Source of the DNA: an uncultured Candidatus Saccharibacteria bacterium
Lineage (GTDB): Bacteria > Patescibacteriota > UBA1384 > CAILIB01 > JAUSJZ01
Direction of reading: 5' to 3'
Assembly: GCA_964421635.1 (NCBI GenBank)
Contig: CAYQWZ010000006.1
Location: 165-64,164 of the forward strand
DNA length: 64,000 bases
Positions 4,127 through 64,000 of this stretch are shown here, piece after piece; positions within the stretch are counted from its first letter, which is position 1; every line of letters starts with the position of its first letter. The position numbers and the translations under genes were made by a program. The notes below the pieces were generated by a model that saw only the letters and a list, made by a program, of their open reading frames with translations, had not been told where the DNA came from and did not search any database.

Positions 4127-5128
4127 GTGAAAAAAATTATCCCAGTGGTGGCTTTTTTTCTTCCGGTAGTGGTATTTGGCTCCACCTTATTTTTAAATCA
4201 AAAAAATGAGCAATGGATGACAATCAAAGCCCAAGCTGCCGGTATTGAAGAAGAGCAACAGGTTCTAGGCGCTCAAGTGACAGATATCGCAGATAAAATT
4301 AGCTCAGTTCAAGCAGAAGTTTATTACGGTCCGGGCGAAATTTATACACTCGACGATATGCAAACAATTTTGGGCATTGAGGTTTTCGAAGAAGATATTG
4401 TGACCGCCTTTCCGAATCCTTCGTTAGGAGTAGGCTCAGAAATTAAAGTTTATCGGGCGCAGGCAGTTTTAGTAGTCGACGCAAAAGCAGAAACCGTATA
4501 TAGAAGCTGGATGCGGACTATTGGCGAAATGCTGGCCGAAAAGGGAATTGAGGTTGGCGATGATGATGAAGTGGAGCCGAATCAGGACACTGAATATTTA
4601 ACAGACAATCGGTTGACGCCTGTCAAAATAATAATTACGCGAGTTGAAGAAACAGATGTGGAAGTGCCTCAAAAAATTGAATTCGAAGTGGAGTATCAAG
4701 ATGATAGTTCAATGTTTAAAGGTGAGACGAAAGTTTTACAGGCTGGTATAGAAGGATTGCGCATAAAAACCTATCATGTACGGCGCGAGAATGGGGAAGA
4801 GGTCGCGCGCGATTTAGTTGCTAATGAGGTCACTAAAAATCCGCAAACGAAGGTAATCGCGCGCGGCACAAAAGTGAAAACTTACGGCTCTGGCAACGCC
4901 ACTTGGTACACGAAAAAGTATAGTCATGTAGCCGCCCACAACACCTTACCGCGAGGGACGAGGGTAAAAGTCATAAACAACGCAAACGGCAAATCTACAG
5001 AAGTTACCGTAGTCGGCGGCGGATTATACACTAATGCAATTATAGATTTATCATATGACGCCTTTTCTGAGATAGCAGATCCTTCGGCTGGCGTAATTTC
5101 GGTCAGACTAGAAAAAGTGTACGATTAG
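4127..5128 (+). CDS. YabE-like cell-wall protein: N-terminal TM, G5 domain, C-terminal 3D/RlpA-like double-psi beta-barrel domain
   Basis: GTG start; hydrophobic N-terminus; G5-like segment (VKIIITRVEETDVEVPQKIEFEV...); C-terminal YGSGNATWYTKKYSHVAAHNTLPRGTRVKV...VVGGGLYTNAIIDLSYDAF. Synteny with rsmA as for yabE-ksgA in Bacillus. Confidence 0.65.
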   Translation: MKKIIPVVAFFLPVVVFGSTLFLNQKNEQWMTIKAQAAGIEEEQQVLGAQVTDIADKISSVQAEVYYGPGEIYTLDDMQTILGIEVFEEDIVTAFPNPSLGVGSEIKVYRAQAVLVVDAKAETVYRSWMRTIGEMLAEKGIEVGDDDEVEPNQDTEYLTDNRLTPVKIIITRVEETDVEVPQKIEFEVEYQDDSSMFKGETKVLQAGIEGLRIKTYHVRRENGEEVARDLVANEVTKNPQTKVIARGTKVKTYGSGNATWYTKKYSHVAAHNTLPRGTRVKVINNANGKSTEVTVVGGGLYTNAIIDLSYDAFSEIADPSAGVISVRLEKVYD

Positions 5129-48863: not shown

Positions 48864-49229
48864 ATGAAGAATACAAAAAGAAAAGGCATATTAAGGTTTT
48901 TTACATATTACGATTCAAAAGATAGAGAATATGTAGGTTTTTGTATTGAACTTGGAATAATAAAAACTGGCAAAGATCTAAACGAGGTTAAGAAAGATCT
49001 TATTAATGCATCTATTGGTTATGTAGGGGTAGTAAAAAAAGAAAAAATGCCAGATAAGTTACTGAATCAAAAACCACCAAGTCAGTATATGGATCTATTC
49101 AATAAATATCAGTTAGTTATGAACTCTGATAGAAGGATTCGTCAAGGGACTAATCTAAGGGATTCTATTAGTGCAGATAGAGTTGATACTTTTGTGAGAG
49201 ATCTTGGTTCGTTATGCCCCGCAATCTAA
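48864..49229 (+). CDS. hicB: HicB-like antitoxin (UPF0150 fold), putative
   Basis: YVGFCIELGIIKTGKDLNEVKKDLINASIGYV resembles the HicB N-domain; AT-rich; precedes the HicA-like ORF with 16-nt overlap. Confidence 0.45.
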   Translation: MKNTKRKGILRFFTYYDSKDREYVGFCIELGIIKTGKDLNEVKKDLINASIGYVGVVKKEKMPDKLLNQKPPSQYMDLFNKYQLVMNSDRRIRQGTNLRDSISADRVDTFVRDLGSLCPAI

Positions 49230-49513
49230 GAAACTGGAACTATAATGATATTGTTGCTTTTTTAAAGCAACATTTTTTCGTGGAGATATATTCAAATGCA
49301 GGTTCCCATCAATATTTTAAAGGCTATGTAGATCAAGTAAAAAAATTAGTTGAAGTGCAAAAACATGGAAGTAAATCCATTAGTATCAAAAGTCTTCAGC
49401 ATGACATCATTCCCAAATCTGGAATACCCGAAAGTATTTGGAAGAAATGGGCAAATGCAGGGAATAAAAAAACAAGAAAAAAGATTCAATATTTAGGTGC
49501 TATGTCTGAATAA
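49214..49513 (+). CDS. hicA: HicA-like (YcfA family) mRNA interferase toxin, putative
   Basis: YNDIVAFLKQHFF...NAGSHQYFKGY...LVEVQKHGSKSISIKSLQHDIIPKSGIPESIWKKW matches the HicA pattern (GSH..F, K..L..il). Confidence 0.5.
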   Translation: MPRNLRNWNYNDIVAFLKQHFFVEIYSNAGSHQYFKGYVDQVKKLVEVQKHGSKSISIKSLQHDIIPKSGIPESIWKKWANAGNKKTRKKIQYLGAMSE

Positions 49514-52863: not shown

Positions 52864-52880
52864 GCCTTAAATAAAAAAGA

Positions 52881-52907
52881 GTCCCAGCGGCGCGCCGCCA
52901 CCGGGAC
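52881..52907. repeat. GC-rich palindromic hairpin (gtccc-agcggcgcgccgcca-ccgggac with internal 12-nt perfect palindrome gcggcgcgccgc); terminator on minus strand
   Basis: A-run immediately 5' on the plus strand (U-run after the hairpin on minus); starts a ~110-nt GC-rich stretch foreign to the AT-rich surroundings. Confidence 0.5.
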
Positions 52908-52980
52908 CCTGGGTCGTCGGCACGATTGGCACCAAGCATTATCTGTCGCCCGAGGAGGTGATCCCGCTTGGTAACCGTTG

Positions 52981-53072
52981 ATTATAGTATCATTAAAAGC
53001 TAAATTGTGTCAATGAGGTAGAAAGTTATTATGGTAATTGTTTTGTAATGATTATGTGTTATTATAGTGTCA
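52981..53072 (+). promoter_or_regulatory. Promoter/operator region of rSAM cluster: direct repeats ATTATAGT(A/G)TCA at 52981 and 53061, the second containing a TATAGT -10-like hexamer
   Basis: Two 12-nt near-identical copies 80 nt apart; the second lies ~20 nt upstream of the peptide ORF SD. Confidence 0.4.
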
Positions 53073-53091
53073 AATAATAGCTGGAGTTTGT

Positions 53092-53145
53092 ATGAAGATA
53101 GTAATAAAAAAGAACAGAGGGTGTTCTCTCTGTGTTCCAACATAG
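53092..53145 (+). CDS. Candidate RiPP precursor peptide (17 aa, two Cys), not in ORF track
   Basis: ATG preceded by CTGGAG SD at -8; translates to MKIVIKKNRGCSLCVPT; stop 27 nt before the rSAM gene SD. Confidence 0.4.
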   Translation: MKIVIKKNRGCSLCVPT

Positions 53146-53172
53146 CACCTTATTTATTAAGGACATTGTGAT

Positions 53173-54147
53173 ATGAGCGAATGTATTAATATCGCCAATC
53201 CTTATTATGTTCAATTACATCTGTTAGCAGATTGTATTTTTAATTGTTCGTACTGTTATTTAAAGGGATATGATAGAAAAAGCATGCTTTCAAAAAAACA
53301 AATTAATACCTTTCTTAACAAATTTAACAACTACTACCAGGACTTTGGTCTCAGAGTACACATAAATTTGACAGGTGGTGACATATGGCTATATGAAGGT
53401 ATTAGCGAAATATTCTTTTTACTAAAAAAACACAAAGTTGTTCAAGATTTTAGTTTGTTGCTCAATAGTCTATGGCATGAAGATTCTTATAAAATTATCA
53501 AAGACAATAAAAATAGCATATCACTTGTACAGCTAAATATAGATGCGATAAATAATAGAGATAAGGACATTCAATTTTTAAGTAAAGAAAAAATTAGATT
53601 TGTTATTAAAATTCTTCTATCAAATAATGAGCATTATTATATAAAACAACTTAATATTCTTCGCAAATTATTAAGAAAATATCCAGATTTATTAGTTTCT
53701 ATTGATAGAATTTGTCCCACCAATCAGTCTAACAAAAAAATGAGACTTTCAGTAAAAAATTTAAAAAAGAAATTATTGGAGATACGATCAATTGCAAATA
53801 ATGTATTAATCGTTGATGATCCTTTAGTTTCTGCTTTTTTTAATAAAGCAAAATCAGAATCGGAAAAAGGATTTTGGAATGGATGTGTAATCCCAAGCGG
53901 TGGCTTAGCTGTATATCCTAATGGGGAAGTAAAACTCTGTGCACGAATACCCAATTATACTACAGGTTTTACAATAAACAATTTCACTTTAGAACATTAC
54001 ATAGATAGTTTTAGTGAGATTAGAAATCAGCAAATGAAAAATTGTAATAAATGTCCAATATCTGCGCAGTGTCAGGGTGGTTGTCCAGCTACATCTTTTA
54101 TTGACAAAAATATTATTACAAAAGATCATCAATGTTTATATGAGTAA
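53173..54147 (+). CDS. Radical SAM enzyme with C-terminal SPASM domain (peptide-modifying maturase candidate)
   Basis: CIFNCSYC (CX3CX2C) near N-terminus, NLTGGDIW glycine-rich SAM motif, C-terminal CNKCPISAQCQGGC (CX2CX5CX3C) plus additional Cys; AT-rich. Confidence 0.8.
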   Translation: MSECINIANPYYVQLHLLADCIFNCSYCYLKGYDRKSMLSKKQINTFLNKFNNYYQDFGLRVHINLTGGDIWLYEGISEIFFLLKKHKVVQDFSLLLNSLWHEDSYKIIKDNKNSISLVQLNIDAINNRDKDIQFLSKEKIRFVIKILLSNNEHYYIKQLNILRKLLRKYPDLLVSIDRICPTNQSNKKMRLSVKNLKKKLLEIRSIANNVLIVDDPLVSAFFNKAKSESEKGFWNGCVIPSGGLAVYPNGEVKLCARIPNYTTGFTINNFTLEHYIDSFSEIRNQQMKNCNKCPISAQCQGGCPATSFIDKNIITKDHQCLYE

Positions 54148-55069
54148 TGAAAATGAAAGGACCAATGAAAACTTGCCTGAAGAAAATAGGTTTGAAGCTA
54201 CAAGGGTAACTTCTTCAGCTGATTTATTGAGAGCAGATTTTCTTTCTGACCAATTAGTTTCATTTCTTACAAATACCACAAAAAGATATTCTCTTTCTGT
54301 GGCTGACATTGAATTAGTGATGGATCTATTATATAGACCTGGTACAGAGGTCAATCGGGAGATTGTTCTTGCACTATCAAAAGTGCTTGAATATAGAGAT
54401 GATTTTTCACCGGAGGGAATGGACCAAGACTATTTAGCAAATTTGCATTTGAATAGAAAATTTAGATATCGTCCTCATTATTATCATTTTAGACAACACT
54501 CAGCTTACACATGTGGTATAGTTTGTTATCTAATGGCTGCGAATGTTCATACATCAGAATTAGTGCCATCAAAGCGTCAAGAAAGAACTCTTTATAATGA
54601 ATTAGCCGATGAAGAAGGTCTTGTATCTACGATTGCTCTAATGAGAGATGCTGCGTCGAGAGGCTTATACGTTCGAGCGTGTTCTGATAATAATTATTTA
54701 GATATTGAAATGGATGATGAAAGGGCAGAATCTCTGAGAAGATCATTTGTCGCTTTATTAGAATCACCAGATGGTCAATCTTTCGTTCGGTATTCTCCTT
54801 CTGTAGATCTTAATGCTGATTATATTCGCGATCAACTGTATCGAGGCGAGATGATGTTAATGAATGGCACAGTTGGTGGAAATATTCCTCATATGAGACT
54901 TGTCGGCGGTTATCATGGTGAATCGATGTTAGTATCAGATCCCTTAGAAAATCGAATACAGCCTCAACAAACGGAAATTTTAGAAGCAAATATTCAAGCT
55001 CCATTGGGAAAATTCGGCTTTAGTGTCTCAAGCAAACCTTTCAATTTTTATGGAGATCAAGAAATATGA
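54140..55069 (+). CDS. Protein with C39-like papain-fold cysteine peptidase domain (putative leader peptidase) plus unknown N-terminal region
   Basis: Start ATG 54140 (ATGAGTAA overlap with rSAM stop). RQHSAYTCGIVCYLMAAN (Q-x5-C-G..C..M, as at the C39 active-site Cys) and HMRLVGGYHGESMLVSDP (His/Asp region like HxVVL....VxxxDP). Confidence 0.5.
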   Translation: MSNENERTNENLPEENRFEATRVTSSADLLRADFLSDQLVSFLTNTTKRYSLSVADIELVMDLLYRPGTEVNREIVLALSKVLEYRDDFSPEGMDQDYLANLHLNRKFRYRPHYYHFRQHSAYTCGIVCYLMAANVHTSELVPSKRQERTLYNELADEEGLVSTIALMRDAASRGLYVRACSDNNYLDIEMDDERAESLRRSFVALLESPDGQSFVRYSPSVDLNADYIRDQLYRGEMMLMNGTVGGNIPHMRLVGGYHGESMLVSDPLENRIQPQQTEILEANIQAPLGKFGFSVSSKPFNFYGDQEI

Positions 55070-56130
55070 GTGAATACTTAAGGGCAAATGTTGCCGAAGT
55101 ATTTACTGGTGAAGAAGAGGTATCTTCAATGGACAACGAAAATCTGACCATTACCGAATCACATGGGCTAGATTTTGATTTTGGGCATCTGGGATCAAAT
55201 GTATTACAAGTTATGAGTGGTCTTAATATTCGATATGACTATTTAAACCCAGAACTAGAATTAACACTTGGTCAGATACAAGAAGAAATAGTATTCCCGA
55301 TATTACAAGAAAGAATTAGAAACAAGGAAAATCCTTTAGTATTGAAAGAACAAATTGATGCAGTCGCAGCAGTATTAGATCCACGATTAATGCCCGCAAG
55401 TTCTTTTGTTGAATTAATGCATTCTGTCTATCGAAGAAAAATAGTAAATCAACAACAAATGAGTTTATTGTTAAGCGGGTGCATTGACAATGCCTTTGAT
55501 GAAGATCAACTTCAAAGAGCAGGAGACCTCTTAGCTGAATCTGAAAGTGTTGAGCCATATTTTTTTGCTATTTCACAAAGAATGAAGGATTTTATTGATT
55601 TTGCTCTAAATAATATTTCTGAGAGATATCAATTGTATGAAGAAGATGAGCTGCTTCTTTCTTCTCCTGCTCAGGCTTCTTTTTACACGCTTAGAATGTT
55701 GGATCATAGAGAAGCAGTACTTGTTAGTAGAGGGTTAATGGTTGGCACAGAATTATCGGTCGAAGATCATGTTGAAATATTGGCCAATCGTTATTATAAC
55801 GGGTCATTATCTAGGGCAAGAAAAGCAATTGAAAATGAAAGGGATATCAATGTTAATGTAGTCGGTTTTGAAGCAATGAAGGAAGGGGTACATCAGTGGT
55901 GGTTAAGAAAATTTTATTACTTACAGTCTAGAAAATTGTATGGTGCATTAGATGTTGACGAATTATTATTTTTCGATAATACTGTTGACAAATTTTTTCA
56001 GTCGAAGAATTGTCTTATGCATGATATTTTTTTAAGGGCAAAAATGGAAGAGATACCCAAAAAAAACTGGTCTCAATGTGATACTGCTGAAATGAGAGAA
56101 AAAGTTCGTAATGTTATCAATAATTTGTAA
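55066..56130 (+). CDS. Hypothetical protein (354 aa), no recognisable domain; part of rSAM cluster
   Basis: ATGA overlap with upstream gene; same low GC as cluster. Confidence 0.45.
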   Translation: MSEYLRANVAEVFTGEEEVSSMDNENLTITESHGLDFDFGHLGSNVLQVMSGLNIRYDYLNPELELTLGQIQEEIVFPILQERIRNKENPLVLKEQIDAVAAVLDPRLMPASSFVELMHSVYRRKIVNQQQMSLLLSGCIDNAFDEDQLQRAGDLLAESESVEPYFFAISQRMKDFIDFALNNISERYQLYEEDELLLSSPAQASFYTLRMLDHREAVLVSRGLMVGTELSVEDHVEILANRYYNGSLSRARKAIENERDINVNVVGFEAMKEGVHQWWLRKFYYLQSRKLYGALDVDELLFFDNTVDKFFQSKNCLMHDIFLRAKMEEIPKKNWSQCDTAEMREKVRNVINNL

Positions 56131-56196
56131 TAGCATTAAAAACTTGACAATTACTCAATAATCCGTTTTAGTTACCTAAAATAAGCAAATATCACG

Positions 56197-56865
56197 ATGA
56201 CAGCCTTAGTTGTTGAAGACGACAGAGATATCGCTACATTTATTGAGAAGGGGTTGAAGTTAGAAGGATTTGTTACGCAGCTAGCTTTCGATGGTGAAGA
56301 GGCGTTGGACTTAATTGAAAGTAACGATTACGACATAGTAATTTTAGATTTAATGCTGCCTAAACTTAAGGGAGAGAAGGTGCTAAGCACTGTTAGAGAG
56401 GCAGGTATTAATGTTCCAATAATTGTGCTAACAGCCAAGACAGAGACTAATTCAAAAGTTAATGCCCTAGACCAAGGGGCCGACGATTATCTAACTAAGC
56501 CTTTTGCTTTTGAAGAATTAATGGCGCGCATTCGAGCTCTGACTCGTCGCGGCAATCAGCTACAACCAAACATTTTACAGGTAGGTGAGTTAGAGCTTAA
56601 TCCGGCGACGCGAGAAGTGAAGCGGGCAGGAAAAATTTTAGAGCTGACCAAAAAAGAGTACGCCATAGTGGAGTTATTGATGCGAAATACTGAGCGAGTT
56701 TGTACCCGTAGCATGATAGGTGAGCATGTTTGGGGTTTTGAATTCGATATGATGAGCAATGTGATAGATGTGCATATCGCTCGTTTGCGTCGTAAGGTTG
56801 ATAAAGGATTTTCAAAAAAAATGGTTCGTACTATTCGTGATGTCGGATACCGATTGCAGGTCTAA
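56197..56865 (+). CDS. OmpR/PhoB-family response regulator (orphan)
   Basis: LVVEDDRDI, DLMLPKLKG, VRTIRDVGYRL; TTGACA -35-like hexamer 17 nt from TTTAGT upstream. Confidence 0.85.
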   Translation: MTALVVEDDRDIATFIEKGLKLEGFVTQLAFDGEEALDLIESNDYDIVILDLMLPKLKGEKVLSTVREAGINVPIIVLTAKTETNSKVNALDQGADDYLTKPFAFEELMARIRALTRRGNQLQPNILQVGELELNPATREVKRAGKILELTKKEYAIVELLMRNTERVCTRSMIGEHVWGFEFDMMSNVIDVHIARLRRKVDKGFSKKMVRTIRDVGYRLQV

Positions 56866-63067: not shown

Positions 63068-64000
63068 TATATTTAAGAGTTTGATCCTGGCTCAGGACTA
63101 ACGTTGGCGATGTGCCTAACACATGCAAGTCGAGCGGCCCTTCGGGGCAGCGGCAGACGGCTGAGTAACACGTCCGTAACATACCCCAAAGCGGGGGATA
63201 GCTCGTCGAAAGACGGGGTAATACCCCATGTGGTGTCACCATAATTTGGTGCCATTAAAGTATTTATACACTTTGGGAGTGGCGGGCGGCCTATCAGGTT
63301 GTTGGTGAGGTAAAGGCTCACCAAGCCTACGACGGGTAGCTGGTCTGAGAGGATGTACCAGCCAGACCGGGACTGAGACACGGCCCGGACTCCTACGGGA
63401 GGCAGCAGTTGGGAATTTTGCACAATGGACGAAAGTCTGATGCAGCAACATCGCGTGTAGGAAGACGCACTTCGGTGTGTAAACTACTTTTATTTGGGAA
63501 TAATTTTTTGAAGGTACCTTATGAATAAGCACCGGCTAATCTCGTGCCAGCAGCCGCGGTAATACGAGAGGTGCAAACGTTGTCCGGAATTACTGGGCGT
63601 AAAGAGTACGTAGGTGGTTTGATAAGTCGTTTATTAAAGATCAGGGCTTAACCCTGGGAATGTGAGCGAAACTGTCTTACTTGAGTTAAGCAGAGGTGTG
63701 CGGAACACTCGGTGAAGGGGTGACATCCGTTGATATCGAGTGGAACACCAAAGGCGAAAGCAGCACACTGGGCTTTAACTGACACTGAGGTACGAAAGCG
63801 TAGGTAGCGATCGGGATTAGATACCCCGGTAGTCTACGCTGTAAACGCTGCTCACTAGGCATTGGAAAGTATCGACCCTCTTTAGTGCCAAAGCTAACGC
63901 GTTAAGTGAGCCGCCTGGGGAGTACGAACGCAAGTTTAAAACTCAAAGGAATTGGCGGGGAGACGCACAAGTGGTGGAGCGTGTGGTTTAATTCGATGCT
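63068..64000 (+). rRNA. rrs: 16S ribosomal RNA, 5' ~930 nt (continues beyond window)
   Basis: AGAGTTTGATCCTGGCTCAG at 63076, GTGCCAGCAGCCGCGGTAATAC at ~63545, ATTAGATACCCCGGTAGTC, AAACTCAAAGGAATTGGCGG; overlapping minus-strand ORFs are spurious. Confidence 0.92.

Follow-up and report, generated by a model that had tools for sequence, protein, structure and literature searches.

Gene cluster and start codon

In this study, we analysed a compact gene cluster in a 64,000-nucleotide stretch of contig CAYQWZ010000006.1 (assembly GCA_964421635.1) from an uncultured Candidatus Saccharibacteria bacterium; this whole stretch is called the window. The gene of interest is a stop-free open reading frame (ORF) of 309 aa at 54140..55069 on the plus strand. 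The gene is real, and its product is a C39-like cysteine peptidase of clan CA, as supported by a family profile, an AlphaFold2 model and Foldseek. It is the third of four co-oriented genes. A candidate precursor peptide of 17 aa (53092..53145, +), which has homologous small ORFs in other loci, is preceded by GGAG 7 nt before its ATG. It is followed by a radical S-adenosylmethionine (rSAM)/SPASM enzyme of 324 aa that resembles peptide maturases (53173..54147, +; Pfam Radical_SAM, TIGR04085), by the peptidase, and by an all-alpha partner protein of 354 aa without known family or fold (55066..56130, +). The rSAM enzyme lacks a recognition element (RRE) of the kind used for peptides that are made by the ribosome and modified after translation (RiPPs). 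The last three genes overlap one another: the peptidase ATG overlaps the rSAM stop codon by 8 nt, and the peptidase stop codon overlaps the start of the partner gene by 4 nt.

A model-made annotation of this DNA (the original prediction) had described the peptidase as a stand-alone C39-like protein of the bacteriocin-processing type inside an rSAM cluster. It had placed the Q/C/H motifs at residues ~150-290, behind an N-terminal region of ~125 aa. The quoted strings were located at residues 117-135 (FRQHSAYTCGIVCYLMAAN) and 251-268 (HMRLVGGYHGESMLVSDP), so that the residue range has to be corrected, and the N-terminal region exists but comprises ~110 aa when translation begins at ATG 54140. 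The earlier numbering is ~20-30 residues too high for this start and fits GTG 54077 (330 aa) better. The GTG start was dropped, as it would create a 71-nt overlap with the upstream gene and finds no backing in the lengths of the homologues. Overlaps between the peptidase and its upstream gene are short in the homologous loci (4-11 nt), and therefore ATG 54140 is preferred.

The stand-alone character of the protein was borne out. Neither the peptidase, the operon nor the large ORFs scanned in the 45-64 kb part of the window contain an ABC transporter or ABC domain, and no exporter is encoded within the four-gene unit. The maximal Kyte-Doolittle mean over 19 residues is ~1.1, and none of the three larger proteins has a hydrophobic stretch. 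Thus, the peptidase is predicted to be soluble, with neither a membrane segment nor a signal peptide.

Sequence family and catalytic residues of the peptidase

Relatives were collected by an exhaustive HMMER search of 1.84 billion representative proteins, which gave 20 sequences at E up to 1e-3, ten of them at E up to 1e-10; word-indexed protein database searches returned only the peptidase itself and the relatives P0017 and P0022 (P numbers denote related proteins, L numbers homologous loci). In the family alignment of 21 sequences, consisting of the peptidase and these 20 relatives, H251 is invariant, while C125, D267, P268, G257, P288 and G290 are each kept in at least 90% of the members. 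Gln119 is part of a HYRQxxxxxC motif and is seen in most members. The corresponding codons lie at 54494-54496 (Q119), 54512-54514 (C125), 54890-54892 (H251) and 54938-54940 (D267) on the plus strand.

The profile hidden Markov model check proposed with the original prediction had a mixed outcome. On the window protein, Pfam DUF3335 (PF11814, 'Peptidase_C39 like') reached 20.3 bits (E 4e-4) against a cut-off of 25. Peptidase_C39 (PF03412) reached 16.2 bits against 22 and covered residues 114-145 only, and Peptidase_C39_2 (PF13529) gave no match at E<=1. NCBIfam, PADLOC and PHROGs gave no match to the peptidase. Across the family, DUF3335 matched 11 members, Peptidase_C39_2 also 11 and Peptidase_C39 six. 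The PF13529 cut-off of 24 was passed by the rSAM-linked relatives P0003 (32.4 bits) and P0006 (27.2 bits) and by P0007 (26.2 bits), a fusion of peptidase and partner; these matches cover model positions 5-142 of 143. The DUF3335 cut-off was passed by P0006 and P0017. Phytochelatin synthase (C83, PF05023) matched P0006 alone, below the cut-off (19.1 bits versus 24.9).

A single-sequence search of the PDB with the peptidase found nothing meaningful. The family profile matched Alr0975, a phytochelatin-synthase-like protein (4e-4), and the peptidase domain (PEP) of ComA (3k8u, 4.9e-3). The Alr0975 match is driven by the Cys-helix half. In the alignment with ComA, the family Gln and Cys fall on 'vpQidtrdCG', and the family segment 'lHmrlvsGYeneeflvsDP' falls on QHYYVVYGSQNNQLIIGDP. 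The spacings Q119-6-C125 and H251-16-D267 are identical to those of the aligned ComA PEP residues, and the Cys-to-His distance in the sequence is ~125 residues. The protein is a clan-CA C39-like cysteine peptidase but not PF03412 proper, so that only the C39-like part of the proposed bacteriocin-processing C39 assignment holds. Judged by its profile matches, its nearest group appears to be the single-domain Peptidase_C39_2/DUF3335 proteins. Single-domain proteins make up both PF13529 and PF11814 (PMC10318531), which contradicts the earlier statement that stand-alone C39-like proteases are rare.

Predicted structure of the peptidase

The AlphaFold2 model, calculated with the 21-sequence alignment, has a mean predicted local distance difference test score (pLDDT) of 90.6 and a predicted template modelling score (pTM) of 0.87. 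Four helices (residues 26-108; 54215..54463, +) precede an alpha/beta domain, and the papain-like catalytic domain spans residues ~113-300 (54476..55039, +), as delimited by the model, the conservation pattern and the ComA alignment. C125 opens the helix 125-134, H251 lies within the strand 249-259, and D267 follows directly after the strand 262-266. In the model, this placement is the papain arrangement. The papain-like fold expected in the original prediction was thus recovered in the model, and the Q/C/H arrangement agrees with it, with Foldseek and with the ComA alignment.

In the Foldseek search against the PDB, the top match was the pseudomurein endoisopeptidase PeiR (4.6e-5), followed by ComA PEP (4e-4; template modelling (TM) score 0.72 normalised to the target, probability 1.00). 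PCAT1 PEP (6.8e-4) and the 'C39-like peptidase' 3erv (2.3e-3) were also retrieved, both with a probability of 1.00, and that of PeiR was at least 0.99. GtgE, the amide synthase CtaG (1e-2) and AvrRpt2 were further matches. Among viral models, the best matches were endolysin-type peptidases, with a Gordonia phage endolysin on top (1.4e-5). A defence-system or phage origin was considered and rejected, since PADLOC and PHROGs were empty for both the peptidase and the partner.

The N-terminal domain is all-helical in the model and not a winged helix. Its helices comprise residues 26-45, 54-64, 73-83 and 96-108, with block-mean pLDDT values of ~73-96 over residues 21-110. An alignment showed the conserved motif [RY]-[YHF]-x-[LP]-S-x-x-D, in which D56 is invariant. 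Short family members (~170-215 aa) are devoid of this domain. A profile of the domain found no relative in the PDB (best E 0.22), and the domain has no Pfam match.

The radical SAM enzyme and the helical partner

The rSAM enzyme harbors the cluster motif CX3CX2C (C21/C25/C28) and a complete SPASM motif CX2CX5CX3C (C291/C294/C300/C304). It passes generic models only, namely Pfam Radical_SAM (36.3 bits, cut-off 29.5) and the NCBIfam SPASM model TIGR04085 (37.9 bits, cut-off 27). Specific maturase models stayed far under their cut-offs; the best was rSAM_ACGX with 48 bits versus 400, and SbtM and PapB scored lower. Merely 20 residues precede the cluster motif, so that the enzyme has no RRE domain. 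Neither Pfam nor NCBIfam detected PqqD or an RRE in any product of the three overlapping genes. The enzyme shares 40-44% identity with the rSAM genes located upstream of P0003 and P0002.

The partner has no match in Pfam, NCBIfam or PADLOC, and PHROGs were empty as well. Its AlphaFold2 model is all-helical (pLDDT 69.8). The best Foldseek match in the PDB had an E value of 0.23, and a PDB profile search returned nothing; the Foldseek matches to generic helical bundles and pore-forming toxins were not accepted as homology (TM <0.2). Homologues of the partner make up the C-terminal ~300 aa of P0005, P0007, P0008, P0013 and P0015, whereas L004 and L013 carry them as separate genes.

Candidate precursor peptide

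The 17-mer of the window is MKIVIKKNRGCSLCVPT, with MKIVIKKNRG as the proposed leader and CSLCVPT as the proposed core. The original prediction had observed that it contains no double-glycine and has R-G before its first Cys, which was confirmed. Six further loci (L004, L005, L006, L007, L008 and L011) have a homologous small ORF immediately upstream of their rSAM gene or fusion. A conserved ORF of 16-26 aa is present in all seven loci with readable upstream DNA. The sequences are MEKIQIVENEGCTLCVPT (L008), MERIELVQNKGCSLCCAA (L007), MLKAKKNKACNICCPA (L011), MKVKLVKNKGCKICVPTAPTK (L005), MLILKKNKACKICQPSKNPKRGKKNG (L004) and, with a TTG start, (M)KIKKNNMCHCCVPSNKEDKKKR (L006). A candidate peptide in L010, MLKGLSCNIFCV, was not counted, as it has CxxxC, no Asn, and does not match the motif.

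Asn at position -3 relative to the first Cys (N8) and both Cys of the CxxC motif (C11, C14) are invariant in the seven peptides. Position -1 is G in four loci, A in two and M in one (L006), and position -2 is R, E, K or N. The leaders are 8-11 residues long. The pattern N-x-x-C-x-x-C, often followed by V-P-T, is kept though the enzymes are only 25-45% identical. In the 127,996 six-frame positions of the window, N-x-[GAM]-C-x-x-C occurs a single time, at the 17-mer ORF. Therefore, recurrence of the motif by chance in six further loci is negligible (rough estimate ~3e-3 per locus). C-terminal tails of 4-10 residues are present in three of the seven loci (L004, L005 and L006), the longest ones (9-10 residues, in L004 and L006) being Lys-rich; the peptides of the window, L007, L008 and L011 are tail-less. 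NCBIfam gave no match for the three peptides that reach a length of 20 aa or more.

Conservation of the unit and gene fusions

The four-gene pathway has so far been found on 11 contigs, one of them (L004) from a metagenome-assembled genome (MAG) titled 'Patescibacteria group bacterium'. A locus scan with a six-sequence subset of the alignment recovered only one genome locus and two metagenome loci. The rSAM/SPASM gene is directly upstream of, or fused to, the peptidase in 9 of 11 informative loci (the window, L004, L005, L006, L007, L008, L009, L011 and L013/14). Together with the overlapping genes and the existence of rSAM-peptidase fusions, this conserved order sustains the placement of the peptidase in an rSAM cluster. 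P0005 (928 aa) and P0013 (950 aa) are triple fusions of rSAM enzyme, peptidase and partner, while P0007, P0008 and P0015 combine peptidase and partner. These gene fusions are the strongest evidence that the proteins of the unit are functionally linked.

Loci with separate genes retain this order. L004 encodes the rSAM enzyme, peptidases and the partner, and the metagenome contigs L005 and L006 encode the rSAM enzyme and one or more peptidases. The metagenome contig L009 has an upstream rSAM fragment that is 44% identical to the window enzyme, and the metagenome contig L011 an rSAM gene with a peptidase-partner fusion. On the metagenome contigs L013/L014, an rSAM fragment (40% identical) lies upstream and a partner gene (26% identical, E 3e-34) downstream. 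For P0010 and P0016, the contigs do not extend far enough to assess the neighbouring genes.

Several smaller features of these loci were recorded. The homologous block of L004 begins right after a tRNA-Ile(TAT) gene at 4299-4374. In L004 (5557-6120) and L006 (1418-2086), the main peptidase is separated from the rSAM gene by a short second peptidase paralogue (~187-222 aa), which is devoid of the N-terminal helical domain and keeps Cys, His and Asp. Such a paralogue accompanies a C-terminal tail on the peptide in two of three loci with a tail and in none of the four without (Fisher p ~0.14), which is only a hint of a link between the two. In L005 (954-1940), the rSAM ORF has just 238 aa and is followed by a ~270-nt gap before the peptidase gene, probably due to a frameshift or an assembly error.

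Proposed function of the peptidase

We propose, with moderate confidence, that a compact RiPP-like pathway uses this protein as its dedicated cytoplasmic processing peptidase, which would cut R-G|C, with leader recognition that does not depend on an RRE. Its most likely role is that of a cytoplasmic leader peptidase in complex with the maturase, acting at a site other than double-glycine. The rSAM enzyme, the peptidase and the partner would work together as a complex. The rSAM/SPASM enzyme would modify the invariant CxxC core. For Cys-containing substrates of rSAM/SPASM enzymes, thioether formation is the commonest precedent, and a thioether cross-link or other Cys-centred chemistry would be likeliest here. 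Cys125 would then attack the peptide bond between the first Cys and the small residue before it (N-x-[G/A] in general, R-G|C in the window), and the modified 7-residue core CSLCVPT would be set free within the cell. As an RRE is missing from the maturase and the leader comprises just 8-11 residues, the N-terminal helical domain of the peptidase or the helical partner would probably supply substrate capture. A cut on the N-terminal side would be the common denominator of the loci, because all have an N-terminal segment and only three of seven have a tail. The lack of a hydrophobic segment and the fusion of some relatives to an Fe-S enzyme support a cytoplasmic location.

Several observations weigh against this proposal. 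The window protein scores under the gathering threshold of every Pfam family, and in the PDB profile search the phytochelatin-synthase-like transpeptidase Alr0975 is slightly ahead of ComA. The leader shows neither the GG nor the hydrophobic -4/-7/-12 pattern of C39 substrates (PMC10885120), and position -1 is Met in L006. The peptidase-partner fusions P0008 (L010 4666-6453) and P0007 (L017 2748-4368) have no adjacent rSAM gene on their contigs, so that either the maturase is encoded elsewhere or these fusions act independently of an rSAM enzyme. Finally, the peptidase family is very small, with 21 representatives that all stem from metagenomes.

It is tempting to speculate further that the three proteins form one self-contained machine for peptide maturation, which in some organisms is a single polypeptide of 930-950 aa. 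In this machine, a leader of 8-11 residues would be recognised without an RRE, the CxxC core would be radical-modified, and a C39-like domain re-tuned from Gly-Gly to Asn-x-Gly/Ala would release it. The 6-7-residue product would stay cytoplasmic and serve as a redox- or metal-active cofactor, following a logic like that of PQQ or mycofactocin, and would not be a secreted bacteriocin; alternatively, the papain-like domain might be a transpeptidase. We regard this extended scenario as unlikely.

Taken by itself, a papain-like domain that works through an acyl-enzyme as a transpeptidase, ligase or acyl-transferase, like phytochelatin synthase, CtaG or BtrH, is quite improbable. Such an enzyme might, for example, macrocyclise the core or join it to another molecule. 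Alr0975 is the top profile match in the PDB (4e-4), P0006 weakly matches Pfam Phytochelatin and Guanylate_cyc_2, CtaG is among the Foldseek matches, and the ~125-residue Cys-to-His spacing is nearer to these larger relatives than to the reduced C39 domain. In addition, L004 and L006, whose peptides have follower tails, each encode a pair of peptidase paralogues, reminiscent of the way in which cyanobactin pathways employ two proteases. However, these matches are all weak and below family cut-offs, whereas C39 peptidase domains are the stronger structural matches. A follower is absent from four of seven peptides, so that follower-dependent cyclisation is not general, and no gene for a second substrate is conserved in the unit. 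It is likewise unlikely that the peptidase belongs to the pathway but cuts elsewhere, by trimming just some N-terminal residues, removing the tail, or degrading unmodified or mis-modified peptide in quality control or immunity. The very short leader, the occurrence of Met at the otherwise small position -1 in L006, and the 4-10-residue tails in L004, L005 and L006 would fit such a role. However, the peptidase is also kept where the peptides are tail-less (window, L007, L008 and L011), and both Asn at -3, which alone is invariant in the leader, and the mostly small residue at -1 adjoin the proposed cleavage site.

That the protein merely lies beside the rSAM gene and is a cell-wall or protein-directed papain-like hydrolase of an endolysin/PeiR-like or effector-like type, unrelated to the peptide, is very improbable. 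PeiR and the Gordonia phage endolysin are indeed the top Foldseek matches in the PDB and among viral models, respectively, and PF13529 occurs in phage lysins. Against this stand the missing signal peptide and membrane segment, the in-frame fusions P0005 and P0013, which join it to an rSAM enzyme, a cytoplasmic Fe-S protein, the conserved operon order with overlapping genes, and the empty PHROG and PADLOC results. We give hardly any weight to the small ORF being a regulatory leader, as in Cys-sensing attenuation, with another target for the peptidase and the rSAM enzyme. The ORF is tiny, contains Cys and lies just upstream of the operon. However, its motif is conserved at the amino-acid level across loci whose enzymes are 25-45% identical, the window ORF has its own Shine-Dalgarno-like GGAG, and it offers just two or three Cys codons that are not in tandem.

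Comparison with known systems

A 2023 review of RiPP leader proteases lists C39 enzymes solely as domains at the N-terminus of peptidase-containing ABC transporters (PCATs); they cut after GG, GA or GS and require hydrophobic residues at -4, -7 and -12, and the soluble forms that serve as tools, such as LahT150, are excised, engineered truncations (PMC10885120). With the C39 PCAT domains (ComA PEP 3k8u, PCAT1, LahT150 6mpz), the window peptidase shares the predicted papain-like fold, the Gln/Cys/His/Asp residues with Q-6-C and H-16-D, and a short ribosomal peptide with a small residue at -1. In contrast to them, it is neither fused to nor encoded beside a transporter, separates Cys and His by ~125 residues instead of ~80, and carries an additional N-terminal four-helix domain. 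Its presumed substrate has a leader of 8-11 residues ending in N-x-[G/A/M], not GG/GA/GS, and without the -4/-7/-12 hydrophobic pattern.

PF13529 comprises single-domain relatives of C39, and DUF3335 is often fused to GNAT domains (PMC10318531). The peptidase has the soluble single-domain architecture and the longer Cys-His insert of PF13529/PF11814 proteins, and relatives of it pass the cut-offs, whereas the window protein itself is below both. These families have been described with transporters, GNAT domains or phage lysins, not with rSAM maturases (PMC10318531). In our literature search, we found no PF13529/PF11814 member that was characterised as a RiPP leader peptidase.

Removal of a leader inside the cell by a cytoplasmic stand-alone Cys protease, as we propose here, is known from PoyH (C1A) and from the lasso-peptide B2 proteins (C96; PMC10885120). 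In lasso B proteins, the protease is also coupled to a peptide-binding domain, which is either separate or fused. PoyH and B2 belong to other papain-clan families and use long leaders and an RRE, whereas here no RRE is detectable and the protease is sometimes fused to the maturase itself. The combination of an rSAM/SPASM enzyme with the complete 7-Cys SPASM motif and an adjacent tiny Cys-containing precursor is shared with pathways of very short precursors (PqqA/PqqE, MftA/MftC) and of thioether-forming maturases (PapB, SCIFF). The window enzyme has weak NCBIfam similarity to the ACGX, SbtM and PapB maturases (<=48 bits versus 340-400). In contrast to those pathways, the unit has no PqqD/RRE partner and a different type of peptidase, and its helical partner has no counterpart in them.

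In a full-text literature search, with most subscription journals outside its coverage, no published description of a unit of peptide, rSAM enzyme, C39-like peptidase and partner was found. As far as can be told, the unit represents a variant of rSAM-dependent peptide maturation that has not been described before. What is new is the rSAM context and not the fact that the peptidase stands alone; the peptidase belongs, as a divergent member, to a known superfamily, and its fold and chemistry are conventional. It is unusual for a native soluble C39-like protein to be dedicated to an rSAM peptide maturase and, in some cases, to form a fusion with it. A natural enzyme of this kind coupled to an rSAM maturase would widen the known routes of leader removal. 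Its apparent substrate is a minimal leader without GG, and a small tool protease with a new specificity could potentially be derived from it. With a precursor of 16-26 aa, a maturase without RRE and an orphan helical partner, the unit is a candidate for a new RiPP class. To our knowledge, few natural-product pathways have been described from Patescibacteria.

Genomic surroundings and other elements of the window

The neighbouring genes are housekeeping genes (prmC, prfA, rpsB, frr, M50 protease, proS, response regulator, uvrC, tpiA, tig and clpP). The three-gene block within 53000-56200 has 23-38% G+C versus ~40% in the flanking housekeeping genes. This low G+C content suggests that the block was acquired horizontally and is island-like.

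A GC-rich element of ~100 nt is located on the minus strand between proS and the peptide gene (52870-52985). Its features are a promoter-like TTGACA-18-TACTAT (with TG) at 53013..52984 and, at 52910..52878, a terminator hairpin of 15 bp with a T-run. The minus strand folds with -48.7 kcal/mol (z = -2.5), and the z-score of the plus strand is -0.5. Rfam gave no match at E<=1. The element may be an unannotated small RNA. Between tsf and frr, a small ORF of 121 aa overlaps with a second one of 99 aa (48864-49513); the two may form a HicB/HicA-like toxin-antitoxin pair, the second being weakly similar to the HicA toxin (E 0.02). At 63069-64000, a bacterial 16S rRNA gene is present with its 5' part and runs past the end of the window.

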